Origin: an uncultured Bacillales bacterium
GTDB lineage: Bacteria; Bacillota_I; Bacilli_A; RFN20; CAG-826
NCBI GenBank assembly: GCA_946409515.1
Contig: CAMJWS010000001.1
Location: forward strand, 318,824 to 382,823
Direction of reading: 5' to 3'
Length of the DNA: 64,000 bases
Shown here one piece after another: positions 23,546 to 43,433 of this stretch. The position numbers were made by a program, and so were the translations under genes. The notes beneath the pieces are model-generated. The model searched no databases and had not been told where the DNA came from. It saw only the letters and a list, made by a program, of their open reading frames with translations. The number at the start of each line of letters is the position of its first letter. The first letter of the stretch is position 1.

Positions 23546-23700
23546 TCCTCTTCGTCATGTCCGGTGCCGGGTTTATTCTGCCAAGCTTTAACGCAGATGC
23601 CGGTGACTATTGCTAGTCAGGTGGGATCGTACCGATAACCACTATTTCTAATGGTTCTTTGCTAGTGCAACCAGTTAACGACGGTTCTTTAATCCTTCGA
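23546..23700. repeat. Repeat module 3 of the GC-rich RNA-like block
   Basis: Shares the CCTCTTYGTCWTGTCCGG leader, the hairpin at 23561-23607 (loop CCAAGCTTTAACG) and the trailing CTTTAATCC motif with modules at 23867 and 24166. Confidence 0.5.
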
Positions 23701-23866: not shown

Positions 23867-24008
23867 CCCTCTTTGTCTTGTGTCCGGCGGTGGTTTTACG
23901 CTGTTAAACTCTAACTCAGCGACCACTGTAGCAGTGAGGTTTGCCGTTTGAATTTCCCGAAGGATTTCCAGCCTTTGCGATCATTGACTGGGAACTTTAA
24001 TCCCAGAG
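23867..24008. repeat. Repeat module 2 of the GC-rich RNA-like block
   Basis: Hairpin at 23884-23928: stem CGCUG/CAGCG plus GGUGG/CCACU, loop UUAAACUCUAACU. Followed by CTTTAATCC at 23996. Confidence 0.5.
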
Positions 24009-24165: not shown

Positions 24166-24310
24166 ATCCTCTTTGATCTTGTCGGGCGGTGGGTTTATGC
24201 TGTCAAACTCTAATTCAGCATCCACTGTAGCAGGGAGGATTTGCCCTTGATTGATTACGAGAACCAATCTGCCAGTACAATCATTGATCCAGACCTTTTC
24301 TTTAATCCTG
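24166..24310. repeat. Repeat module 1 of the GC-rich RNA-like block
   Basis: Hairpin at 24183-24227: stem UGCUG/CAGCA (compensatory relative to module 2), loop UCAAACUCUAAUU. Followed by CTTTAATCC at 24298. Confidence 0.5.
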
Positions 24311-28877: not shown

Positions 28878-30197
28878 ATGATAGTCGTTTGTATGATTGC
28901 TACTATCGTCATTTCTGCTATTACATTCCTAGGAATCACTCTATCTACATTACTCTTCCCTAGAATCAAATTAGGTAAGATTTATTTAGATACATATTGG
29001 CTTATCGCTTTATTAGGAGCGATTGTTTTAGTGGCCACTACTTTATGCCCAATTAAAGAGATTGGTGCTTCTTGGACTAGTAGCGCTGCAATTAATCCAC
29101 TGAAGATATTAGTTTTATTCTTTTCGATGACCATCCTTTCTATTTTCTTAGATGAAGTTGGTCTATTTAGATTCCTTGCTTGCTTTGCAGTTAAGCACGC
29201 GAAGAACAGTCAAACCGCATTATTCTTTATCCTCTACTTTTTAGTGGCGTTCCTTACAGTATTCACCTCTAACGATATCGTGATATTAACATTCACACCA
29301 TTTATTTGTTTCTTCTGTAAGAGAACTAAGATTTCACCTCTTCCATTTTTAATCGCGGAGTTTACCGCTGCTAATACATGGTCAATGATGTTTGTAATTG
29401 GTAATCCTACAAATATCTATCTAGCAACTTCCGCGAATATTACCTTCATCGATTATTTCAAAGTGATGGCTATTCCAACCTTATGTGCTGGCTTGGTGGA
29501 GATTCTTATTATCTATCTCTTATTCCGTAAGAAACTTGGACAAGTATTAAGTTGTGAAGACTGTGAAACAGTCCATATTGAAAGTAAGTTTGATTTAATT
29601 GTTGGTGTCACTCACTTACTAGTGTGCTTAGTCTTCCTTATCATCTCTCCATATATTCATCTAGATATGTGGCTCATATCTCTGATATGCGCAGTATCAT
29701 TATTAGTCTTTGTTATTATCACTAGATTAGTAAGAAGAAAACAGTGGCATTATTTAGTTAATCCACTTAAAAGATTACCTTATCAATTAATCCCATTTGT
29801 TTTATCAATGAGTATTATTGTTATTGCGCTTCACTATCAAGGAGTGGCAGAGAAAATCGGCGAATTATTAAATACCGTATCGCCTATCTTATCTTATGGC
29901 GCCTCTTCTTTCATCATGGCTAATATGGTCAATAATATCCCAATGTCTATCTTATTTGCGGATGTCCCATTAGCCTTAGAAGGGCAGGCATATTATCAAG
30001 CAATCTACGCGACGATTATTGGTAGTAACATTGGTGCTTTCTTAACACCAGTTGGCGCTTTAGCGGGTATTATGTTTCAAAGTCTATTATCAAAATACGA
30101 AGTCAAGTTTACATTCAAAGACTTCGTTAAATATGGATCTATCATTAGTGTTCCAGTAATCGCTACCGCGTTAGCGGTCTTATTAGTAATGCTTTAA
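28878..30197 (+). CDS. ArsB/NhaD-superfamily anion permease (YbiR-like)
   Basis: 439-aa polytopic membrane protein with the duplicated-halves architecture typical of CitMHS/ArsB permeases. Confidence 0.6.
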   Translation: MIVVCMIATIVISAITFLGITLSTLLFPRIKLGKIYLDTYWLIALLGAIVLVATTLCPIKEIGASWTSSAAINPLKILVLFFSMTILSIFLDEVGLFRFLACFAVKHAKNSQTALFFILYFLVAFLTVFTSNDIVILTFTPFICFFCKRTKISPLPFLIAEFTAANTWSMMFVIGNPTNIYLATSANITFIDYFKVMAIPTLCAGLVEILIIYLLFRKKLGQVLSCEDCETVHIESKFDLIVGVTHLLVCLVFLIISPYIHLDMWLISLICAVSLLVFVIITRLVRRKQWHYLVNPLKRLPYQLIPFVLSMSIIVIALHYQGVAEKIGELLNTVSPILSYGASSFIMANMVNNIPMSILFADVPLALEGQAYYQAIYATIIGSNIGAFLTPVGALAGIMFQSLLSKYEVKFTFKDFVKYGSIISVPVIATALAVLLVML

Positions 30198-31595: not shown

Positions 31596-33323
31596 TTATT
31601 TATACTGTGAAGAATATAAGGAATAGTAGAATCCTTGTTTCTTCATTAATTCTTGATGGTTACCTGTTTCTACGATTGCACCATCTTTCATAACAATAAT
31701 AATATCCGCTTTTTCGATTGTTGATAACCTATGAGCGATAACTATTGATGTTTTATCTTTCATCATATAATCAAAAGCGTCAGTAATAAGCTTTTCACTA
31801 CGAGTATCAATATTGGATGTAGCTTCATCTAAAATCACTAGTTCTGGATTAAGCAACATAATTCTAGCGATAGCGATCATCTGTCTTTGACCTTCAGATA
31901 AGCCGTGTTTATTACTAACCTTAGTTAAATAGCCGTTAGGTAAAGTATTAATGAAGATATCAGCGTGAGCCTTCTTCGCAGCTTCTTTAACTTCTTCTTC
32001 ACTAGCCTCTTTCTTATAGTAACGGATGTTATCTAAGATTGTGCCAGTAAAAATCCAAGTATCTTGAAGAACCATACCAACATGGCTTCTTAAAGATTCT
32101 TTTTTAATATCTAAATATGATTGGTTATTGATGTTAATAAGACCACTATTAGGATCATAGAAACGCATCAATAAATTAATGAGAGTTGTCTTGCCCGCAC
32201 CTGTTGGTCCAACGATAGCAACTTTCTGTCCTTTTTTGATTTCTAAAATGAAGTTTTCAATGAGCTTTCTATTAGTGTCATAGCTGAAAGACATATCCTT
32301 AAATTCAATGCTATCAATGCTTTCGATTTTGCCTTCTCCATTATTGATATCATCATCAATATTTAAGAAGTCATTTATTCTTCTAAGTGACGCTTTTGCG
32401 TTCTCAAATTCTGAGACAACATTAGAGATTTCGTTGAATGGTTTTGAGTATTGATTTGTGTATGATAAGAAGCTTGATAAACGGCCAATAGACATTACCG
32501 CAAAGACAGTAATTAAATCATCATTAAAGCCAAGCATAATGATACCTGCAACGCCAATAATGACATAAATAATGTTATTTACTAATCTAGTGCTTGGATT
32601 GACCCATGAAGCCGAAAACTGCGCAATTCTCCCCTCTTTTTTAAGTTTTCCATTTATTTCATTAAATTCCTGAATTGCGGCCTTTTCATAGTTCAAAGAC
32701 TGCACTATATCGATATTATTGAGTGTTTCTAAGGAGGATGCGGACAGGTTTGCTTGTAGTTCTGACTGCTTTTTATAGTGTTTATAGGAGAATGATGAAA
32801 CAATCTTTGCCATCAGCATACTTAACGGGGTTAAGATGATTACTCCAAGGGCTAAAATCCAGTTCACCATCACCATCATAATAATGGTAATAATGACGGT
32901 GAAAATACCTTGCATCAAAGTCTTAAATACAGCGAATAAACCACTAGCGAAATTCTCCATATCCCTGATCTCAAGTTGGACAATATCACCGTGTCTTTTA
33001 TTATCAAAATCCTTTAAAGACATAGCATTAATTTTTTGATACACATCGTCTCTTGCTTTCTTGATTGCCTTTTGTGAAACGTTCATCACAATGACTTCAA
33101 ATAAGTAGCCAAAAACAATACCAATAATGATTAAACCTAAGGCCACGAATACATAGATATTAAATAGTTGATGATTACTATCTTTAGAGGCATCAAGCGC
33201 TCTACCTAATAAGAAAGGTTGGGCTATTTGAGCAATAACAAAGAGCAATGAAAAGACTAACGCAATCACGAGTGATTTACGCATTGGCTTTAGGTAACTG
33301 AAAAGTCTTTGTTTGCTAGTCAT
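31596..33323 (-). CDS. ABC transporter, fused permease/ATP-binding subunit (type I exporter, heterodimer partner B)
   Basis: Six TM helices followed by Walker A (GPTGAGKTT), signature (LSEGQRQ) and Walker B motifs. Confidence 0.9.
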   Translation of the reverse strand: MTSKQRLFSYLKPMRKSLVIALVFSLLFVIAQIAQPFLLGRALDASKDSNHQLFNIYVFVALGLIIIGIVFGYLFEVIVMNVSQKAIKKARDDVYQKINAMSLKDFDNKRHGDIVQLEIRDMENFASGLFAVFKTLMQGIFTVIITIIMMVMVNWILALGVIILTPLSMLMAKIVSSFSYKHYKKQSELQANLSASSLETLNNIDIVQSLNYEKAAIQEFNEINGKLKKEGRIAQFSASWVNPSTRLVNNIIYVIIGVAGIIMLGFNDDLITVFAVMSIGRLSSFLSYTNQYSKPFNEISNVVSEFENAKASLRRINDFLNIDDDINNGEGKIESIDSIEFKDMSFSYDTNRKLIENFILEIKKGQKVAIVGPTGAGKTTLINLLMRFYDPNSGLININNQSYLDIKKESLRSHVGMVLQDTWIFTGTILDNIRYYKKEASEEEVKEAAKKAHADIFINTLPNGYLTKVSNKHGLSEGQRQMIAIARIMLLNPELVILDEATSNIDTRSEKLITDAFDYMMKDKTSIVIAHRLSTIEKADIIIVMKDGAIVETGNHQELMKKQGFYYSLYSSQYK

Positions 33324-33324
33324 C

Positions 33325-35121
33325 TTATTCCTTTCTAATTTGGGTTTCATAAATCTCTTTATAGATTGGGCAGTTCATTAATAGGTCATTATGCTTACCT
33401 TGACCCACAACTTGTCCACCTTCTAACACTAAAATATAGTCAGCGTGTTGAATGGTAGACACTCTTTGAGAAACGATGACTTTAGTCATATCTTTAAAAC
33501 TATTGATAGTTTCTCTAATACGTTTATCCGTTAATAAATCTAACGCTGATGTGGAATCATCTAGGATTAAGATATTTGGTTTACGAATGAGCGCTCTAGC
33601 GATACACAATCTTTGTTTTTGACCGCCAGAGAAGTTCAGTCCACCTTCATTGACTTCATGATTAATACCATCTTCATACTTACTCACAAATTCATATGCT
33701 TGCGCTTGTTTTAAAGCGTTGATGATATCTTCATCACTAGCGGCAGGATTACTCATTAAGAAGTTAGATTTAATTGTGCCTTTAAATAAAGATGATTTTT
33801 GATTAACTAAGCCAATATCATTTCTTAAATCATTTAAGTTATAGTCCTTCAAAGAAACTCCTTGATACAAGACATCACCCTTAGATGCATCATAGAATCT
33901 TTCGATTAAATTAATAACTGTGGACTTACCACTACCAGTACCACCAATAACACCAAAAGTTTCACCTTTTCTAATTTGGAAATCTAAATCATTTAAGAAG
34001 TAATTATCATCATCCATAAATGAGAAACTGACATGATTAAATCTAATTAAAGGGGCCTTATTATCGATAAGATACTGCTTATTTTCATTAACGATTGATG
34101 GATTAATAGAAAGAACACTATCGATTCTTTTAGAGGAGACATGAGCCTTAACAATCTCAATAATTACTTGTGAGAATTGGACCACTACAAAGAAGATTTG
34201 AGATAAGTAAGCCATCTCTGCAATGATGGTAGAAGCTACTTGTGTATTAGAGGCACTAAATAAGCTATTTTGTAAGAGCAAGATAATAACAATTAAGACA
34301 ATTGATGTGATGGCGAATGTTAAAGGATTAATTAATGAGTTAATGCGATTAACTTTAATGGCCTTATCTTGATAGGCATTTGTCTTAATCGCAAATTCAT
34401 TATTTTCTCTATCTTGTTGATTAGAGGCTCTGACCACTCTTGCGCCATCTGTAGTTTCGCTTGTTTTATTACTTAAATCATCTAAGTCATTTTGGATTTC
34501 AACATAGCCTTTAGATGATTTTCTTAGGACTAGGAAGTTCACTAAGAAGATTAGAGGAACAATCGCAGTAAAGGCTAAGCCCACTCTCCAATCTAAAATA
34601 AATGACATCACTAATGAGCCAATCAATATGAATGGAGCGCGTATCACTAATCTCACAAACAAAAGAACACCATGTTGTAGCTGGTATGTGTCACTATTTA
34701 TCACTGTTAATAGTTTAGAATTACTAACTTGTTCTCTTTCCTTTTTAGAGAGCTTAAGCATCTTATCATATAAGGATTCTCTAACTTCAGTGCCCACTGC
34801 TACTGAAGAAACAGCGGCGATATACTGACTAATCATGGTCAAACCATATCCAACAACACCCATAATCAGGATAATTAAGCCACCCACTAAAGCATCACTA
34901 ATAGTGTTATTAGAGAAATTAAACGCTCTTATAAAAGATGCCACAGAAGAGGAGATCTTATTTGGAATAGATTCAGGATTACCATATTGATTTAAATCAA
35001 TAATAGCCTTCATAAATAAAGGTATTAATAAATCAAAGATTGCTTCTATGATTTTAATAAATGGTCCTAGAGCAATACTGAGGATATTGTGTTTATATGA
35101 ATCAGATACTTTTTTAATCAT
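33325..35121 (-). CDS. ABC transporter, fused permease/ATP-binding subunit (type I exporter, heterodimer partner A)
   Basis: Six TM helices followed by GGTGSGKST, FSGGQKQRLCIARAL and ILILDDSTSALD motifs. Confidence 0.9.
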   Translation of the reverse strand: MIKKVSDSYKHNILSIALGPFIKIIEAIFDLLIPLFMKAIIDLNQYGNPESIPNKISSSVASFIRAFNFSNNTISDALVGGLIILIMGVVGYGLTMISQYIAAVSSVAVGTEVRESLYDKMLKLSKKEREQVSNSKLLTVINSDTYQLQHGVLLFVRLVIRAPFILIGSLVMSFILDWRVGLAFTAIVPLIFLVNFLVLRKSSKGYVEIQNDLDDLSNKTSETTDGARVVRASNQQDRENNEFAIKTNAYQDKAIKVNRINSLINPLTFAITSIVLIVIILLLQNSLFSASNTQVASTIIAEMAYLSQIFFVVVQFSQVIIEIVKAHVSSKRIDSVLSINPSIVNENKQYLIDNKAPLIRFNHVSFSFMDDDNYFLNDLDFQIRKGETFGVIGGTGSGKSTVINLIERFYDASKGDVLYQGVSLKDYNLNDLRNDIGLVNQKSSLFKGTIKSNFLMSNPAASDEDIINALKQAQAYEFVSKYEDGINHEVNEGGLNFSGGQKQRLCIARALIRKPNILILDDSTSALDLLTDKRIRETINSFKDMTKVIVSQRVSTIQHADYILVLEGGQVVGQGKHNDLLMNCPIYKEIYETQIRKE

Positions 35122-35187
35122 CTAATACATAATATCACTTAATAGCAATTAGTTTAATCGCTATTATTTTATTTATGAGCGTAAAGG

Positions 35188-37224
35188 TTGAATGGCATTC
35201 ACTTTTTGCTTTATAATAGCGTCATGAAATTTGGAATTCTTGTTAAAAAAATTAGACAAAGATATAGACTCACACAAAAGGAATTAGCGGACGCTCTTGG
35301 CTATTCTCATAAGTCTATGATCAGCAAAATCGAAAAAGGCGAAACAGAAATGAGCTATGATAAAGCCGTTCTTCTTGTAGAGAAGTTTGGTTTAAACGCT
35401 AACGAATTATTTTTTGAAATTAATGAAAAACCATCTTTAGATGGTCGTGATAAAAAGATTGTGACTATCCAAGATATTTCTTGTTATGGTCAATGCTCAA
35501 TTACTGTGGCTCTCCCTATCTTAAGTGCCTGTGGTTATGAAACCGCTATTTTACCAACATCTATTCTTTCTACTCATACCTCTGGTTTCCATGGTTTCGA
35601 ATATAAAGATATGGATGAGGAATTAGATAAATTCCTTAAACACTGGGATAGAGAAAATTTAGGATTTGACGCTATCTATACTGGTTATTTAGGCAGTGTC
35701 TCCTTAGTGGACTTTACCTTAAGAGCAATTAAACAATTAAAGAAAGAAAACTCTTTGGTAATTGTTGATCCTGCCATGGGTGATAAAGGTAAATTATATC
35801 CAGCGTTTAATGAAGAATACGCACTAAAAATGCGTGAACTCATCAAAGAAGCGGATATCATCTTACCAAACATTACAGAAGCCGCTTATATGAGTGGCGT
35901 TGCTTATAAAGAAAAATACGACAAGCCATATATCGAAAACTTAGTGAAAGAATTAAGCAAATATACATCCGCGAAGATTATTCTTACTGATGTTTCTTTC
36001 CAAAAGAACACCACTGGTGTCTTTATCTATGATAATGGCTATATGCAATATTATAAGCATCACAAGATTGGTAACGGTTATCATGGCACAGGTGATATCT
36101 TCTCTTCTACCTTCGTCGCCTCTTACTTAAAGAACCGTGAATTATATCTATCCGTTAAAATGGCTGCGGATTATGTCTATCGATGTATTAACTACACCCA
36201 AAGTGATAAGAATCACTGGTATGGGGTGAAATTTGAACCATTATTAAATGGATTAGTTAATAAATTAAATGATATCGAAAGGACAAATAGAAAAATGATC
36301 TTAAAACATGTCGACGAAGCAGTCGGTAAAACTCCATTAGTGGAGCTCACAAATTACGAACAAAACTTAAAATTAAACGCGAGAATTATCGCTAAAGTTG
36401 AATACTTCAACCCAGCAGGTTCTGTCAAAGACAGAATCGCTAAAGCGATGATTGATAAAGGTGAAAAAGATGGCTTAATTAAGAAAGATACAATCTTAAT
36501 TGAACCAACAAGTGGTAATACAGGTATTGGCTTAGCTATGGTCAGTGCCGCACGTGGCTATCGCTTAATCATCACAATGCCTGAAACCATGTCTATTGAA
36601 AGAAGAAACCTTTTAAAAGCCTACGGTGCAGAACTCGTCTTAACTGATGGTAAGTTAGGTATGAAAGGCGCTATCGCTAAAGCGGAAGAATTACACGCTC
36701 AATATCCTAACAGTGTGATTCCAAGCCAATTCACAAACCCCGCTAATCCAAACGCCCACTACTTAACAACGGGTCCAGAAATTTTTGAAGAATTAAGTGG
36801 TCGCGTTGATATCTTTGTGGCTGGTGTTGGTACTGGTGGCACAATCTCTGGTGTTGGTAAATACTTAAAAGAACAAAATCCAGAAATTAAGATTGTTGCA
36901 GTTGAACCAGAATCTTCTCCAGTCTTATCAAAAGGCACACCTGGTCCACATAAGATTCAAGGTATTGGTGCAGGCTTTGTTCCTCAAACACTTAATACTG
37001 AAATCTATGATGAAATTATCACAGTTTCAAACGAAGATGCCTTCGCTACTGGTAAGACCTTAGCAAGAAAAGAAGGCTTACTTGTTGGTATCTCTAGTGG
37101 CGCGGCTGTGAAGGCGGCAACTATCTTAGCCCAACGTAAAGAAAATCAAAGTAAAACTATCGTGGTTCTCTTACCAGATACTGGTGAAAGATACTTATCC
37201 ACAGACATGTTCAAAGAAGAATAG
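35188..37224 (+). CDS. Tri-domain fusion: HTH_XRE DNA-binding domain + pyridoxal kinase (PdxY/PdxK) + cysteine synthase/O-acetylserine sulfhydrylase (CysK)
   Basis: aa 13-80 are an XRE helix-turn-helix ([26 protein letters not shown]). aa about 88-360 match PdxY ([27 protein letters not shown]). aa about 368-678 are CysK ([16 protein letters not shown] lysine motif, [17 protein letters not shown]). The reading frame is uninterrupted. Confidence 0.75.
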
Positions 37225-37241
37225 TAAACAACAAAAACAAA

Positions 37242-37275
37242 GGAGACGGGTAGCAATTCCGTCTCCTTTTTATTT
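37242..37275. terminator. Bidirectional intrinsic terminator
   Basis: GGAGACGGGTAGCAATTCCGTCTCC hairpin flanked by an A-run and a T-run. Confidence 0.7.
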
Positions 37276-37789: not shown

Positions 37790-39646
37790 TTAGAACTTCT
37801 TTTTCAAAGTAACAATATTCTTGTGATTGATATAGTCATAGGCGTATTCACTCATTAACTTCTTAACAATTAATATGCCTAAACCACCCTCCGCTCGTTT
37901 AGCGTAGTTGCCATCAAGTGGCTCATTATTAACGGTAAATGGATCGAACTTATCCGCTCTATCGATAATGGTCATAACGAATTCGTTTTGATCTTCATTA
38001 TAGAGCAATCTGATGAATATATCATCAGTGTATTCAGCGTAGCCGTATTTAATGATGTTAGATAGCATTTCATCAGCGACAACACATAAGCTATTAATGA
38101 AGCCTTCTTCAATGTTCATTTCATGAGCGAATTCTTCAATTAAACCAATCATCTTTGGAAGGCTATCTTTTTCGCCTCTAAATGTTTCTTGCTTATATAG
38201 ATATCTATCACCATGATATTTCATTGTGATATAAGTCATATCATCCGCTTGATCTTCACCATCAACGAATCTTTCAATATCGTCTTTTAAGGTGTGATGC
38301 AATTCTAATAAGCAGGAATACTTCTTCGCGTTAAATAAAGCGATTAAACGGTCTTCTCCATAGAATAAACCCTTAGAGTTACGGGCTTCGGTAATGCCGT
38401 CTGTATATAAAGTTAAAGTATCACCATTTTTAAGTTGATATTTCTCATTAGTGACGAATACATCTTTAAGAGGTCCTAAGACAAAACCTGGTTTACATTT
38501 TAAGTAATGATAGTCTTGTTTTTGACCAACAATAGGAGGATTGTGTCCCGCATTTGCGAAGTTCATCTCACCTGTTTTAGTGTTGATTACTGCATAGAAG
38601 CAGGTCACAAACATATTGGAGTCATTGCCTTTATTAATGATTCTATTAACTTCTTTTAAGACCTCTTCTGGAGTTTTATCAATAGAAGCACAGTTTCTAA
38701 AGCAAGTAATGGTTTTCATCATAAACATTGCCGCTGGAATACCTTTACCAGAGACATCAGCGATGACTAATGCTGCGTGTTCATTATCAAGCAAGAAATA
38801 GTCATAGAAGTCACCACCAACGTGCTTCGCTGCTTTTAGTTCTGCTTGAATTTCAATATCTTCACTAGTGACGAATTCCGTTGGTAATGTCGCCATTTGA
38901 ATCTCTTTAGCGACGTCTAATTCTGTTCTAGTCTTTTCTTGTTCACTATTAACACTAATTTCTTGTTTTAATAATTTATAAGTTCTGACGTTTAAGGAGT
39001 TCGAAACAACAAAGATCAACGCTAAGAGCAAAGCTCTTGGTAAGAAAGTAAAAGTCAAAGCTTGTAAGTATCTATTTTGACCTGCTACTAATTGTTCGTG
39101 TAATAAGTCATAACGTTCTTTAACACCAAAGACTTCTACCGCATCACCATTAACGACTTCTTTAATACCTAAGATATTCGCGTCATATTCACCTACGAAC
39201 AAAGATAAGAATAAGCAAAGTAACATTAAAATAGAAATCACACCAAAGGTGATTCTACCTAACTTAGGATTATAGTAATGGTTAGTCATAATGATACATA
39301 ATGCCCAACCAATAAATGAGTTCCTTGGTAAGATGACATTAAGTACGGCGATAATCATCACGAAAGAGAAAACCACAAAGAACTTATAATTTGGTTTCTT
39401 TAAAGCCTTCTTAAACTTAAATACATATAGCAAAGGCGTTAATAAGATAACGATACTAATTGGGAAGGCAATATTGATTAAAGGCATGATTTGAGGTGAA
39501 GCATAGAATGCCCCTGTCATATAGCAAATCCAAATGCCTAAAAGCAAAGCCGCACCAAAAGCGTTAGCGATACTCATCTGTTTGTTCGCATCCGCTTCGT
39601 TTTCGTAATAAGCTTCTAAATATTTATTTCTCTCAAACTCAGTCAT
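37790..39646 (-). CDS. Membrane-anchored PP2C (SpoIIE/RsbU-type) phosphatase fused to a C-terminal GHKL (RsbW-like HATPase_c) kinase domain
   Basis: About 6 N-terminal TM helices; central SpoIIE domain (ADVSGKGIPAAMFM, DGITEA); C-terminal HATPase_c (ADEMLSNIIKYG...GGLGILIVKKL). Confidence 0.75.
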   Translation of the reverse strand: MTEFERNKYLEAYYENEADANKQMSIANAFGAALLLGIWICYMTGAFYASPQIMPLINIAFPISIVILLTPLLYVFKFKKALKKPNYKFFVVFSFVMIIAVLNVILPRNSFIGWALCIIMTNHYYNPKLGRITFGVISILMLLCLFLSLFVGEYDANILGIKEVVNGDAVEVFGVKERYDLLHEQLVAGQNRYLQALTFTFLPRALLLALIFVVSNSLNVRTYKLLKQEISVNSEQEKTRTELDVAKEIQMATLPTEFVTSEDIEIQAELKAAKHVGGDFYDYFLLDNEHAALVIADVSGKGIPAAMFMMKTITCFRNCASIDKTPEEVLKEVNRIINKGNDSNMFVTCFYAVINTKTGEMNFANAGHNPPIVGQKQDYHYLKCKPGFVLGPLKDVFVTNEKYQLKNGDTLTLYTDGITEARNSKGLFYGEDRLIALFNAKKYSCLLELHHTLKDDIERFVDGEDQADDMTYITMKYHGDRYLYKQETFRGEKDSLPKMIGLIEEFAHEMNIEEGFINSLCVVADEMLSNIIKYGYAEYTDDIFIRLLYNEDQNEFVMTIIDRADKFDPFTVNNEPLDGNYAKRAEGGLGILIVKKLMSEYAYDYINHKNIVTLKKKF

Positions 39647-39648
39647 AA

Positions 39649-40803
39649 TTAGATACCTATATCAATGTCATCATATTTATCTAGTAAGGCAATTAATCTT
39701 TCCTTACAACCATTTAATCTCTTTTGATTATCCTTTTGGTTAGTTAATGTCCACCACACCATATGAGCGTAGCAAACTAAAGCAATCTTATCTTTAATAA
39801 TCTCATCTTCTTTACCGAAGTATAAACGGATAATATCATCATAAAGCTTGACACAGTACTCCCCTTTTAAGCCAAAGAACTGTTCACTATTACCTGGAGC
39901 ATCTTCTTCAAAAGCGACATATGGGCAGCGGAGATTTGCGAGTTCAAAGATTGGATGACCCACTGATAAGGTATCCATATCAATTAATAAGAAGTCTTCA
40001 CCTTGGACCATGATGTTTTTAAAGTGGCAGTCCCCATGGACAAAGGTACTTCTTTCAGGAACACTCTTCATAAGTGCTAAAGCTTTTTCATAATGAGCTT
40101 CATCTAAAAGAGGTTTAATGGTTTCCACTTTTTCGATAAAGAATTTCTTAATAGAAGGAACTGATGGATCAAAACATTTAGTACTATTAATCTTCTTTAA
40201 TAATTCGACATATTTATTTAATAATTCTTCATATTTTTCTGGATATTTACTAAAGGCATTCTTTAAAGACATACAGTCAAGCATTTCAAAACGGACACCT
40301 AGTTTATCCTTAACTTTAACGATATCAAAAGATATCGCAGTAGGAATACCTAAGACGAATGCTTGTTTAGCGAGTTTTAATTCTCTTTCAATTTGTTTTT
40401 CATCACTAGTTCTATTAAAGACCTTAATGATGGTGTCTTTATCGATACGATAAACTGTGGAGAAGAAACCTTCACCAATAACTTCCGCACCATCGACAGA
40501 CATTTCTCTAACGGCTTTTTTAACATCCATGATGTTGGTAAAACCAGTCATTTGTAAAACATCATAAACATCCAAACTAGCGTTTATAACATGTGAGTCA
40601 TTAAATCTCTGTTTAATCTTTAAGATAATACGAAGACCCGCACTAGAGATGTATTGAAGTTTAGCGAAGTCTAAATTGAGTGTTTGAAATTTATTTGAGG
40701 AAAGAACTTCATCAATTTCTTTTTCTATATACTCAGAATTATAAGAGTTAAGTTCTCCTTCGAAAAATAAAGTGAGTAAATTATCAATTAATTCAAAACG
40801 CAT
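39649..40803 (-). CDS. STAS (anti-sigma-factor antagonist-like) domain fused to an APH/protein-kinase-like phosphotransferase domain
   Basis: N-terminal STAS with a SpoIIAA-like phospho-Ser motif (YISSAGLRIIL). The C-terminal domain has a Gly-rich loop (IGEGFFSTVYR), beta3 Lys (IIKVF), a catalytic HGDCHFKNIM and IDMDT (Brenner/APH motifs). Confidence 0.7.
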   Translation of the reverse strand: MRFELIDNLLTLFFEGELNSYNSEYIEKEIDEVLSSNKFQTLNLDFAKLQYISSAGLRIILKIKQRFNDSHVINASLDVYDVLQMTGFTNIMDVKKAVREMSVDGAEVIGEGFFSTVYRIDKDTIIKVFNRTSDEKQIERELKLAKQAFVLGIPTAISFDIVKVKDKLGVRFEMLDCMSLKNAFSKYPEKYEELLNKYVELLKKINSTKCFDPSVPSIKKFFIEKVETIKPLLDEAHYEKALALMKSVPERSTFVHGDCHFKNIMVQGEDFLLIDMDTLSVGHPIFELANLRCPYVAFEEDAPGNSEQFFGLKGEYCVKLYDDIIRLYFGKEDEIIKDKIALVCYAHMVWWTLTNQKDNQKRLNGCKERLIALLDKYDDIDIGI

Positions 40804-40873
40804 ATACCGTCTCCCTTATATATGTATGCCTTTACATACATTATAACGAATTATACGTATACGCGCTAATTAT

Positions 40874-41836
40874 TTATATTTGTCCTTCGCTGCTTGAAGA
40901 TGGATTTGAACTACTATTACCAAATGGATTCTTAGGAGCGCTTAGTTCATAGGCTAAATTCATCACTGTATTCAATGAATCTTCATCGATGAGCTTTTCA
41001 AAAGATGTAGAGTAATTTCTACCATATTTATCTTGTGTTGAGTAATAAGCTTTTACTAATCTATCTTCTCTGAACACATCAATTGTCCAACCTGAGCCTC
41101 TGATATAAAGACGTGTCTCTGAACCATGTCTATAAAAGCCAACAGGTAAATTCTCAAACGTCGCGCTCTTTAAAGCGGTGCAAATAGAACCATCGTCTTT
41201 GAATGTGAAGTCATAATATCTTGCAGGTGTTTCATCAGTGACAAAGACGAATTCTAAATCGACATTTTCATCTTCACTCATTTTATTGATGACAGAGAAC
41301 AAGGTCATTTCATTAATCATGTCGTTATATTCACGCTCAATGTTGTCGCGTTCTTCTTGTTCTCTTCTTTCTTCTTCTCTAATGGCTTGATATTCATTAT
41401 CAATCATTTTGAAAACTGATTTTGCTATCTCTTCATCGAATTGATAATAAAAGGTAAGATCCTTTCCTTGATTTCGATCGTATCTACTTGTTGTGGCATA
41501 TCCATTCTCATAAAAAGCAATTTCATGGTATCCATATCCTAGGAACATAGTGTATCTAAAGTGCAAGGTAAAAGTTGTATCGCTTAATTCTGGTGTGCCT
41601 TTCATATATAAGTATTCGGCATCATCAACCTTAGATATTACCTTATTAACGATGTCACCATTAAATCTGTAAGTATTATATGTTATATAATTTCCACCAA
41701 TGTTAGTCTTAGCGAGATATTTACTTGGGTTTTGCTCAGCAGTATAGTCTCTATCGCTTTTAAAAAGCCAGGAACAGGATGCTGTAGAGATAACGATAAG
41801 GGAAATAGGTAACATTAGTAACGCTTTTTTGCTCAT
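40874..41836 (-). CDS. Lipoprotein, function unknown
   Basis: Signal peptide with lipobox ISTASC; acidic ERREQEER repeat segment. Confidence 0.5.
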   Translation of the reverse strand: MSKKALLMLPISLIVISTASCSWLFKSDRDYTAEQNPSKYLAKTNIGGNYITYNTYRFNGDIVNKVISKVDDAEYLYMKGTPELSDTTFTLHFRYTMFLGYGYHEIAFYENGYATTSRYDRNQGKDLTFYYQFDEEIAKSVFKMIDNEYQAIREEERREQEERDNIEREYNDMINEMTLFSVINKMSEDENVDLEFVFVTDETPARYYDFTFKDDGSICTALKSATFENLPVGFYRHGSETRLYIRGSGWTIDVFREDRLVKAYYSTQDKYGRNYSTSFEKLIDEDSLNTVMNLAYELSAPKNPFGNSSSNPSSSSEGQI

Positions 41837-41904
41837 AGTGGTTTACCACCTTTCACTTATTAGACGTTAATAAATATAGAAAACTGCTAAACAAATATCA
41901 ATCT

Positions 41905-42255
41905 TTATGAATGATATTGCTTCAGCAACTCTTTTTTAGCGGTTTCTAAGTCAATCTTACCAATAGTGTATAAATGAATAATCTTCTTTGCTTGAGAAGA
42001 TGGCTCCATGCCATCGGTAGAGTTAATAATGTACGCTAAGGTTTCAATTTCTGTAGGTTCTTTTTCTTCATCATTCAATTCAAAAGGAATGCCTTTTTTC
42101 AAAGCGACTTGTCGTAAGAATAAATCAATAGCCTGACTCATAGATATGCCAATTGTATTAAGTATCCTTTCTGCTTCCTTTTTAATGTCGGATTGTATCC
42201 TTGCGTGCACTACCTCATTCTTCATATTCCATATCCTCACTAAAAATTGCATCAC
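41905..42255 (-). CDS. Ribbon-helix-helix protein, RelB/DinJ antitoxin-like, with C-terminal extension; no adjacent toxin gene
   Basis: VHARIQSDIKKEAERILNTIGISMSQAIDLFLRQVALKKGIPFEL aligns with the DinJ N-terminal RHH. The true start is probably an internal Met (MKNEVV, about 42225). Confidence 0.55.
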   Translation of the reverse strand: MMQFLVRIWNMKNEVVHARIQSDIKKEAERILNTIGISMSQAIDLFLRQVALKKGIPFELNDEEKEPTEIETLAYIINSTDGMEPSSQAKKIIHLYTIGKIDLETAKKELLKQYHS

Positions 42256-42308
42256 GAACGTGACACATTATCAAAGTATTATTAGCACTATTATCTTGAG
42301 ATAATTAC

Positions 42309-43433
42309 TTAAAACTTCTTTAGTAATTCTCTAATATGTTCAAGGCACTTTTTCTTATCTTCTTCAGGCATATTGCGTTTCTTAAGATAATGTAAAGCGC
42401 GTACACAGCCAATTAATCTAGCTTTATCAATCGCGAGTTGATATTGTTTATCATTTAAATCACTATAGTATTTTCTAGAGATTGTTTTCCATAAATAATT
42501 CGCGGTCTCTAGGGAGATACCTAAAAAGTCTTCAATCGCTGCGCGTCTAATTTCACCAAATTCGAAATATGAGTTACAGACACTAGCGATTTCAAATATT
42601 GGATTACCAGTACATAAGGTATCCATATCAATAAGCATTAGGTCATTACCAACTAGAAGTTGGTTCTTAAGATGAAAATCACCATGAATAAGAGTCTTAG
42701 TTTCTGGTATATCTTCAATAAGTTTTTTAAGTTTTAGATATTCTTGGTCGCTTAAGAAGATTCTAATGTTATTCACATATTTAAGATGACTCTTCTTCAT
42801 ATCTGGTAATGAAGGATCATCACAAACTGTTGTGTGCATCTTCTTTAAGACAGCCACTGCTTTATCAGCAAAGTCATCAAGATTCTTTTGACTTTGTTTA
42901 ACGTAGTTGACACATGATTCAGCATTTAATAATTCAAAGACTGTACCATATTGGTCGCCCACTTTAACTGTATCAAGCGCTATCGCGGTAGGTAAACCTA
43001 GTACAAATGCCTTTTTAGATAGTTCTCTTTCTCGATTAATATCTTCTAATGAGGAACCTAGTTCATAGACCTTAACAATGGTATCTGGGGCAGTAGAATA
43101 TACGGTACCGTGTGCGCCCTTTCCGATAATTTTGCAGCCATCTACTGACACTTGACGTAAGGCTTTTTCAACAGTGACGATATTAGTGAAACCTGTCATT
43201 TCAAAGATGTCATAAACAGAGATAGAAGTATTAATAACACAGACTTTATCAAATCTCTTTTTAAGGCCTAAAACAACACGAAGACCCGCACTAGAAATGT
43301 ATTTCATTCCCTGTGCATCAAGCACTATTTCGTCATAACTATGACCTTCTATTTGCTTAAGAATATCTGCTTCAACTTCAGCAAAATTATCAAATGATAA
43401 AGAAGATGGTAATTGATAAGTAAAGATAACCAT
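42309..43433 (-). CDS. STAS domain + APH/protein-kinase-like domain fusion (paralog of 39649-40803)
   Basis: YISSAGLRVVL STAS motif; IGKGAHGTVYS Gly-loop; HGDFHLKNQLL catalytic loop; IDMDT. Confidence 0.7.
   Translation of the reverse strand: MVIFTYQLPSSLSFDNFAEVEADILKQIEGHSYDEIVLDAQGMKYISSAGLRVVLGLKKRFDKVCVINTSISVYDIFEMTGFTNIVTVEKALRQVSVDGCKIIGKGAHGTVYSTAPDTIVKVYELGSSLEDINRERELSKKAFVLGLPTAIALDTVKVGDQYGTVFELLNAESCVNYVKQSQKNLDDFADKAVAVLKKMHTTVCDDPSLPDMKKSHLKYVNNIRIFLSDQEYLKLKKLIEDIPETKTLIHGDFHLKNQLLVGNDLMLIDMDTLCTGNPIFEIASVCNSYFEFGEIRRAAIEDFLGISLETANYLWKTISRKYYSDLNDKQYQLAIDKARLIGCVRALHYLKKRNMPEEDKKKCLEHIRELLKKF

Follow-up and report, generated by a model that had tools for sequence, protein, structure and literature searches.

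A conserved fusion of a helix-turn-helix domain, a pyridoxal kinase and the cysteine synthase CysK in uncultured ruminant-gut Bacilli, with a probable internal start for CysK

Why should a DNA-binding domain, a kinase of vitamin B6 salvage and a cysteine synthase share one reading frame, and does that frame yield one protein or two? The question is raised by a gene on the plus strand of a 64,000-nt stretch of contig CAMJWS010000001.1 (GenBank assembly GCA_946409515.1, from an uncultured Bacillales bacterium), which was analyzed over its full length and is referred to here as the window. The ORF listing of the window gives a single uninterrupted open reading frame (ORF) at 35188..37224(+), with 678 aa if counted from a TTG codon. 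The original prediction, made from the letters alone, had read this ORF as an XRE-type helix-turn-helix (HTH) domain, a pyridoxal kinase (PdxK) and the pyridoxal phosphate (PLP)-dependent enzyme CysK with no stop codon between them, and this reading was confirmed by Pfam and NCBIfam scores above the respective cut-offs. Below, we argue that the three-domain protein is a genuine, conserved fusion of two adjacent operon genes, that CysK is probably also translated separately from a start codon retained within the fusion, and that the N-terminal part of the protein may repress its own promoter.

Taken one by one, the domains are ordinary family members: an XRE HTH, a PRK07105 pyridoxamine kinase and a CysK. 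Pfam places HTH_3 at aa 19-74, Phos_pyr_kin at 114-337 and PALP at 376-664; these spans count from TTG 35188 in the 678-aa numbering, while all other residue numbers in this text count from ATG 35224. The HTH_3 model is covered at full length with 40.7 bits against a gathering cut-off of 23, only XRE-type Pfam models (HTH_3, HTH_19, HTH_31) match the N-terminal HTH, and the recognition-helix segment KSMIxKIEK is invariant in the fused clade and in an unfused sister clade described below. The CysK domain reaches 454.2 bits with the NCBIfam model TIGR01139 (equivalog cut-off 350.95; model positions 2-298 of 298) and aligns end to end with the solved CysK structures 3rr2 and 2q3b (E 1e-113). It contains the motifs SVKDR (K402), TSGNTG (T429-G434), GVGTGGT (G536-T540) and ISSGAA (S624/S625), all at least 90% conserved in the clade. 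For the kinase domain, the NCBIfam model NF005491/PRK07105 gives 279.6 bits over model positions 6-281 of 286, against an equivalog cut-off of 231, and the Protein Data Bank (PDB) matches are 3mbh (E 1e-45), 3h74 (7e-42) and Escherichia coli PdxK 2ddm (1.5e-13). Aligned to these three structures, the domain shows DPAMGD (aa 182-187), PNITE and the GTGD anion hole (288-291). The motifs quoted in the original prediction are thus present and conserved across the clade, and the CysK lysine and the PdxK ATP-binding residues, on which that prediction had made itself depend, are conserved on alignment to solved structures. Each listed catalytic residue of both enzymes is kept in at least 90% of clade members, and both domains look fully catalytic from their sequences.

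A different reading of the kinase domain is that it is a non-catalytic ligand sensor, as in the ROK/NagC-type repressors, in which case the protein would be a regulator joined to CysK and devoid of kinase activity. Kinase folds have been recruited as sensor domains elsewhere, and the HTH-PdxK fusion is older than the attachment of CysK and has no internal start at its junction, both of which would suit such a role. Against it stand the score above a curated pyridoxamine kinase equivalog cut-off and the invariance of DPAMGD, of the ATP/Mg ligands N216 and E219, and of GTGD with its catalytic Asp D291 in fused, unfused and stand-alone relatives. We regard the loss of kinase activity as very improbable.

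It should be noted that the start codon differs from the one first proposed. The original prediction began the protein at TTG 35188, a position which is the first base of the -35 hexamer TTGAAT; the TTGAAT-18-TATAAT promoter is the best promoter-like site of the region and is kept in all loci. In most fused loci the frame is open for just 12-13 codons 5' of the ATG, L006 is without an alternative start, the gene callers picked the ATG, and the apparent N-terminal conservation "..FYNS." is TATAAT in translation. The TTG was therefore rejected, the N-terminal "extension" being a translated promoter, and the start is ATG 35224, which gives a protein of 666 aa. The -10 hexamer lies 6 nt from the ATG in all fused loci bar L086 (7 nt), and no Shine-Dalgarno (SD) sequence was found within -20..-1 of the ATG in the 12 fused loci checked. 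Because of this spacing and this missing SD, a leaderless mRNA is predicted for the fused clade, while that of the sister clade carries a 27-nt leader with AAGGA.

Could the fusion have been produced by a sequencing or assembly artefact, such as a missed stop or a frameshift that joins two genes? The parts are separate genes in relatives, and the junction of one related contig does carry a homopolymer frameshift, as this explanation would have it. Nevertheless, we assign it a negligible probability and reject it, because NCBI, ENA and Logan each list the exact 666-aa protein of the window and the fusion is intact at the DNA level in 15 loci (the window, L003-L011, L016, L017 and L084-L086). 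Ten of these 15 are GTDB species representatives, titled uncultured Bacilli, Bacillales or Erysipelotrichaceae metagenome-assembled genomes, and the sampled habitats are rumen, omasum and reticulum. The 90% cluster of the window protein holds 99 members, mostly of 666 aa and from many independent assemblies. In a search of 5.8 billion proteins, about 36 clusters drawn from NCBI, ENA, JGI and Logan assemblies shared the three-domain architecture, from 97% down to 71% identity and almost all with 662-668 aa, and all three domains are under purifying selection. That HTH-PdxK-CysK is a real, conserved fusion is, in our judgment, practically certain.

The architecture is confined to a small lineage of uncultured ruminant-gut Bacilli. 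As the original prediction had suggested, it appears to be undescribed: the records, JGI's included, label the protein "cysteine synthase A" and no source gives it a specific name, nor was the architecture found in the literature searched. No independent PdxK-CysK fusion occurred in the top 150 matches of an exhaustive HMMER scan of 1.84 billion proteins, a scan of limited power in whose 50%-clustered library the fused clade itself is invisible; the long multi-stretch matches in it were PALP-PALP or PALP-CysE. An HTH-only homology search for the origin of the HTH returned just two contig-end fragments of the same gene. Metagenomes do contain other single-polypeptide CysK fusions, which combine PALP with an Rrf2 (CymR-like), MarR, hexapeptide (CysE-like) or TMP-TENI domain (P0097, P0110, P0117, P0071, P0073, P0105, P0062); of these, the Rrf2+CysK proteins would amount to CymR-CysK complexes in covalent form.

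The origin of the fusion can be read from its relatives. A sister clade at about 60% identity (L001, L012-L015; P0121, P0123) encodes a 351-357-aa HTH-PdxK protein followed by a separate 316-aa cysK. The junctions between these two genes are of four kinds, i.e., AAAAAGGAAAATAA followed by 9 nt and ATG, an 8-nt spacer, an ATGA overlap and a 14-nt overlap, all of which are typical of translational coupling. The separate CysK begins MKIYKHID..., where the fusion reads ...K-MIYKHID, and Met358 of the fusion aligns with the cysK start in L001 and L012-L015; the junction Met is the old cysK start. Because the sister clade has coupled but separate genes and the cysK start aligns with Met358, it is very likely that the fusion arose by loss of the stop codon, and hence merger of frames, between adjacent operon genes. 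Linkage of pdxK and cysK predates the fusion, as seven further rumen Bacilli loci have a stand-alone pdxK with a divergent cysK (72-75% identical) about 100 nt away and one more has the cysK in tandem. The HTH-PdxK unit, the candidate operator described below and the divergent ATP-binding cassette (ABC) operon are all found already in the sister clade, where cysK is separate. Since the HTH-PdxK unit thus predates the attachment, CysK is a late add-on and not an integral sensor of the regulator.

One locus reads as split again. In L002 (P0042, ENA ERZ28633711; 1470-1500) the junction carries A8 instead of A7, which leaves overlapping ORFs for a 372-aa HTH-PdxK and for cysK; the extra A may be a true reversal or a mistake in the homopolymer. 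Separate, overlapping, fused and re-split states thus coexist among close relatives, with the ancestral ribosome-binding site kept inside the new ORF, and the locus can be viewed as a gene fusion in progress. Two further irregularities were seen in the unfused clade. In L015 (2-244), HTH-pdxK is interrupted by a stop at codon 80, which could reflect true variation or else an error in a homopolymer or in the assembly. In addition, the NCBI record of an unfused HTH-PdxK in the P0123 cluster (NLZ15792.1, "pyridoxamine kinase") has 300 aa against 351 in the longer form; its annotation starts about 50 residues later and is without most of the HTH domain.

The original prediction had noted no convincing internal ribosome-binding site between the domains, and on this point it was wrong. 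The junction in the window reads gat atc GAA AGG Aca aat aga aaa ATG, in which GAAAGGA stands 11 nt before the ATG at 36295 and corresponds in position to the SD of the cysK gene in the unfused clade. An SD-like element is found 8-11 nt 5' of the junction ATG in all 15 fused loci. When SD-like 5-mers were counted within -18..-5 of ATG triplets, the junction ATG had one in 15/15 loci, compared with 12 of the 620 other ATG triplets (1.9%) in the same ORFs. The junction Arg codon is AGG in each of the 12 fused ORFs first examined, a codon that accounts for 3 of the approximately 228 other Arg codons in these genes and for 8% window-wide. Synonymous sites are otherwise well diverged, with the same codon at only 57-77% of identical residues. 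In the most divergent members, which provide the strictest test, the junction reads gcaAAGGAagatttaactATG (Lys-Glu, L084), caAAGGAGcgttaaacaaATG (Gln-Arg-Ser, L085) and GAAAGGA (L086), and the L085 element holds the sole AGG of its gene. The SD is kept across differing linker peptides and was therefore selected as nucleotide sequence rather than as peptide, and the Met at the junction is conserved in all fused members. Given the retained SD and ATG, CysK is probably also made on its own, and we consider it likely that the internal start is functional. What appears as one ORF here probably corresponds to two products, which calls for caution in annotation.

We now turn to the regulatory half of the protein. 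The original prediction had suggested a search for a palindromic operator upstream of the gene's own promoter; a conserved inverted repeat lies on the -35 box of that promoter. The 17-bp imperfect repeat GTTGAATGGCATTCACT contains a perfect 6-1-6 core, TGAATG-G-CATTCA, at 35189-35201; the family consensus is GTTGAA-N5-TTCAnC, which is fully symmetric in L086, with half-sites 11 bp apart. The repeat is the sole perfect match within the 64-kb window, where no further copies were found within one mismatch, and it is the only invariant non-coding block in an alignment of 15 intergenic regions. It occurs exactly once in each of 15 HTH-bearing loci and in none of 66 stand-alone pdxK loci, and its distance from the ATG is fixed in 20/20 HTH-bearing loci. 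Moreover, its right arm sits in the promoter spacer, where promoter function sets no sequence constraint. These observations, together with the invariant recognition helix, make autoregulation by the HTH at this repeat rather likely on sequence grounds. No Rfam match was found near the locus that would point to riboswitch or T-box control.

The ABC pair divergent from the fusion gene, with which it shares a 102-nt intergenic region, is a candidate second target of the regulator. Wherever the flank of an HTH-bearing locus is long enough, orthologues of 69-95% identity lie divergent from HTH-pdxK; beside stand-alone pdxK there are none, except in L044, where a weak pair (34-35%) lies about 1 kb off. 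The proteins are generic MsbA-like exporters that pass no NCBIfam cut-off. An assignment as the thiol exporter CydDC is not supported, the CydD/CydC models giving 189-250 bits, far under their cut-offs of 329-435. No other B6 or cysteine genes were found near the locus. As a separate observation, the ABC operon also appears leaderless by eye: an extended -10, TGaTATTAT, at window 35129-35137 (-) ends 7 nt before the ATG at 35121 with no SD, and this -10 block is kept in both clades (e.g., L001, TGcTATGAT + 8 nt + ATG). Both divergent transcripts of the intergenic region may thus begin at their ATGs.

Our current hypothesis, which taken as a whole we favor by a little, is an autoregulating enzyme-repressor that carries a tethered CysK and is accompanied by free CysK. 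An HTH dimer would bind the 17-bp repeat, occlude the -35 box and autorepress the leaderless transcript; a possible second target, about 70 bp off, would be the ABC-exporter operon. The PdxK domain would be both a working B6-salvage kinase and the ligand sensor, with its ligand state (B6 vitamer, PLP or ATP) setting the affinity for DNA. The tethered CysK would be a working PLP-dependent cysteine synthase beside its cofactor supplier and would add a third dimer interface. Internal initiation would yield free CysK, so that the full-length protein could be a low-abundance regulator or loader while the bulk of CysK is produced on its own. Inferred in this account are binding to DNA, which ligand is sensed, the lack of a leader, translation from the internal ATG and the hand-off of PLP. 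The view in the original prediction of a combined regulator and enzyme stays plausible, backed by the conserved repeat on its own -35 box and the invariant recognition helix, with the exception that CysK as an integral sensor does not hold, since the regulatory unit predates it.

Structure prediction bears on how closely the parts could cooperate. AlphaFold2, run on a 97-sequence alignment, gave a mean predicted local distance difference test score of 86.7 and a predicted template modeling score of 0.52, i.e., confident domains with no defined mutual arrangement. The model shows the HTH as a five-helix bundle that is followed by a disordered linker to PdxK (aa 65-73); between PdxK and CysK runs a long helix (338-356). 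The domains are thus modeled as tethered without a confidently fixed interface, which speaks neither for nor against PLP hand-off. Several points weigh against the enzyme-repressor hypothesis and should be read together. The model gives no defined PdxK-CysK interface and hence no structural support for channeling. The repeat takes in the -35 hexamer, and promoter function accounts for some of its conservation; under the outer-arm description its right arm matches at just 4/6 positions in the window's subclade, despite a perfect 6-1-6 core. Phylogenetic relatedness among the loci also means that counts such as 15/15 are not independent events. Finally, the re-split L002 would mean that the fused and split forms can change into each other and may be almost equivalent.

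The last point leads to the main competing explanation, a neutral collapse of the operon, in which the stop was lost by chance, the fusion is harmless and the three domains work independently as in the split ancestor. The metabolic work would then fall to free CysK translated from the internal ATG, and the tether would add no regulatory or channeling property. The same operator, promoter and ABC partner in the split ancestral state, the retention of the internal SD and ATG, the apparent return of L002 to the split state by a 1-nt indel and the lack of fixed inter-domain packing in the AlphaFold2 model are all as this explanation would have them. On the other hand, the fusion has stayed uninterrupted in 15 loci despite the diverged synonymous sites and in members down to 71% identity, and the connector is predicted as an ordered helix, not junk. 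We hold a neutral collapse to be possible, if on balance doubtful, and we are similarly hesitant to credit the fusion with a PLP-delivery or regulatory benefit beyond the split state; sequence data alone do not separate neutrality from a modest benefit.

In another alternative, CysK itself would be the sensor, and its state (O-acetylserine/sulfide or apo/holo) would control the HTH in a covalent version of CymR-CysK that is mainly cysteine-responsive. CysK is known as a regulatory partner of the repressor CymR (PMC4961446), and natural Rrf2+PALP and MarR+PALP polypeptides exist among CysK homologues (P0097, P0110, P0117, P0071). This reading is disfavored because the regulatory unit of the sister clade, with the same HTH, operator and promoter, works without a covalently attached CysK. 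Furthermore, a whole PdxK domain and a disordered linker separate the HTH from CysK, and no cysteine-regulon genes lie near the locus. We consider a sensor of this kind improbable. A more elaborate reading, in which the full-length protein is a self-contained cofactor loader and sensor, seems unlikely as well. Here, PLP made by PdxK would pass directly to apo-CysK and bypass the free pool, the state of CysK (apo/holo or O-acetylserine-bound) and the occupancy of PdxK would together set the HTH affinity, and the ABC pair would be the controlled transporter of a B6 vitamer (or cysteine).

Regardless of which reading holds, the locus bears on a question of general interest. It is not settled how PLP, a reactive compound, gets to the enzymes that use it; a direct transfer from PdxK or PNPO has been hypothesized and is debated. 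For PdxK, the hypothesis extends to both fold-I and fold-II enzymes (bioRxiv 10.1101/2023.02.13.528268). A natural tethered pair of PdxK and client, with the natural split sister as a control, offers a clean test of direct PLP delivery. If the loader/sensor reading were true, the protein would be a natural "Rosetta-stone" case in which a pyridoxal kinase passes PLP directly to a fold-II enzyme, and it would represent a new class of B6-responsive regulators outside MocR. Even apart from CysK, the pairing of an XRE HTH and PdxK with a conserved operator would define a class of B6-linked regulators separate from MocR/PdxR, and would do so in uncultured rumen Bacilli, about whose vitamin economy little is known.

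Table 1. Coordinates of the features of the fusion locus (window positions; residues counted from ATG 35224)
Feature	Position	Strand	Residues	Details and evidence
Divergent pair of half-transporter ABC exporter genes	31596..35121	-	598 aa + 584 aa	
Candidate operator, 17-bp imperfect inverted repeat	35187..35203	+		Overlaps the -35 box
Sigma-70-type promoter	TTGAAT 35188-35193, 18 nt, TATAAT 35212-35217	+		10/12 matches
Coding sequence of HTH-PdxK-CysK fusion protein, stop codon included	35224..37224	+	666 aa	ORF, domain and homologue evidence
XRE/Cro-C1-type helix-turn-helix domain	35242..35409	+	7-62	Pfam HTH_3
Pyridoxal/pyridoxamine kinase domain, ribokinase superfamily	35452..36267	+	77-348	NCBIfam and PDB matches
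SD-like element GAAAGGA in PdxK-CysK connector	36277..36283	+		Codes Glu-Arg with rare AGG codon (36280-36282)
In-frame ATG	36295..36297	+	Met358	Ancestral cysK start codon and probable internal translation start
O-acetylserine sulfhydrylase (CysK) domain	36295..37221	+	358-666	NCBIfam TIGR01139 and structures
PLP lysine codon	36427-36429	+	K402	
Intrinsic terminator	37239..37269	+		Strong; 12-bp stem, then T-run

Other features of the window were recorded along the way. A CitMHS/ArsB-family permease gene lies just past the ABC pair (window 28878-30197, +) and recurs in two distant fused loci (L003 1020-2330 and L086 1-364), and the conserved neighborhood may therefore reach one gene further. 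Three tandem copies of RF02946 "cow-rumen-1 RNA" are found on the minus strand at 23547-23606, 23868-23929 and 24168-24228 (73-78 bits; gathering cut-off 53.4), about 300-320 nt apart in an ORF-poor gap, which fits a rumen origin. On the other side of the fusion gene, a partner-switching-like module at 37790-43433 (-) encodes a membrane SpoIIE/PP2C-type phosphatase (37790-39646) and two paralogous fusion proteins of a STAS (anti-sigma antagonist) domain and an APH-like kinase (39649-40803 and 42309-43433).

How does the protein compare with known systems? Its nearest relatives are the stand-alone PRK07105-type kinase with an adjacent cysK and the split operon of the sister clade, which contain the same genes at 50-77% identity and are its direct evolutionary precursors. 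The sister operon shares promoter, operator and ABC partner with the fused clade, but it encodes separate polypeptides, and its mRNA carries a leader and an SD; in the fused clade both the leader and the stop codon between the genes are gone.

The original prediction had likened the protein to MocR/GabR and to CymR-CysK, which is sound as analogy only, as the HTH type and the effector folds differ and the defining features of both are missing. MocR, GabR and PdxR combine a GntR winged HTH with a non-catalytic or relic fold-type-I aminotransferase-like domain that binds PLP. They are B6-linked transcription factors, as the present protein may be, and PdxR regulons include pdxK and B6 transporters (PMC5320631). 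In place of the GntR winged helix, the fusion has an XRE HTH_3, and its ribokinase-fold and fold-type-II PALP domains both look catalytic; with neither a GntR winged HTH nor a fold-type-I effector domain, membership in this family was rejected. The CymR-CysK complex of Bacillus subtilis, in which CysK is mentioned as the regulatory partner of CymR (PMC4961446), and the CysE-CysK complex resemble the fusion in that CysK is physically tied to a DNA-binding protein or a pathway partner, and CysK often takes part in fusions or complexes. However, CymR belongs to the Rrf2 family and associates with CysK non-covalently, while here an XRE HTH is followed by an intervening kinase domain and the regulatory unit is older than the CysK attachment. 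Membership was again rejected, as Pfam detects no Rrf2 domain and the Rrf2+PALP fusions found elsewhere are unrelated to this HTH.

The closest systems in logic are NadR and BirA. NadR joins an HTH to a nicotinamide mononucleotide adenylyltransferase and a ribosylnicotinamide kinase, BirA joins an HTH to a biotin ligase, and both are enzyme and repressor in one. In these proteins the ligand state of the enzyme controls DNA binding, and NadR regulates salvage and transport genes. The fusion likewise has an N-terminal HTH joined to an enzyme that activates or salvages a vitamin-derived cofactor, and NadR, too, has three domains; the conserved candidate operator on its own promoter and the adjacent transporter operon would fit the same logic, although regulation here is a prediction from the sequence. 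The resemblance is one of analogy and not of homology, as the fusion is built from an XRE-type HTH, a ribokinase-fold kinase and a fold-type-II PLP enzyme, and its third domain is a client of the cofactor rather than another salvage step. Taken together, the kind of system is probably a familiar one, an enzyme-repressor; what appears to be new is the combination of domains, reached by a simple, partly reversible gene fusion that probably yields two products.

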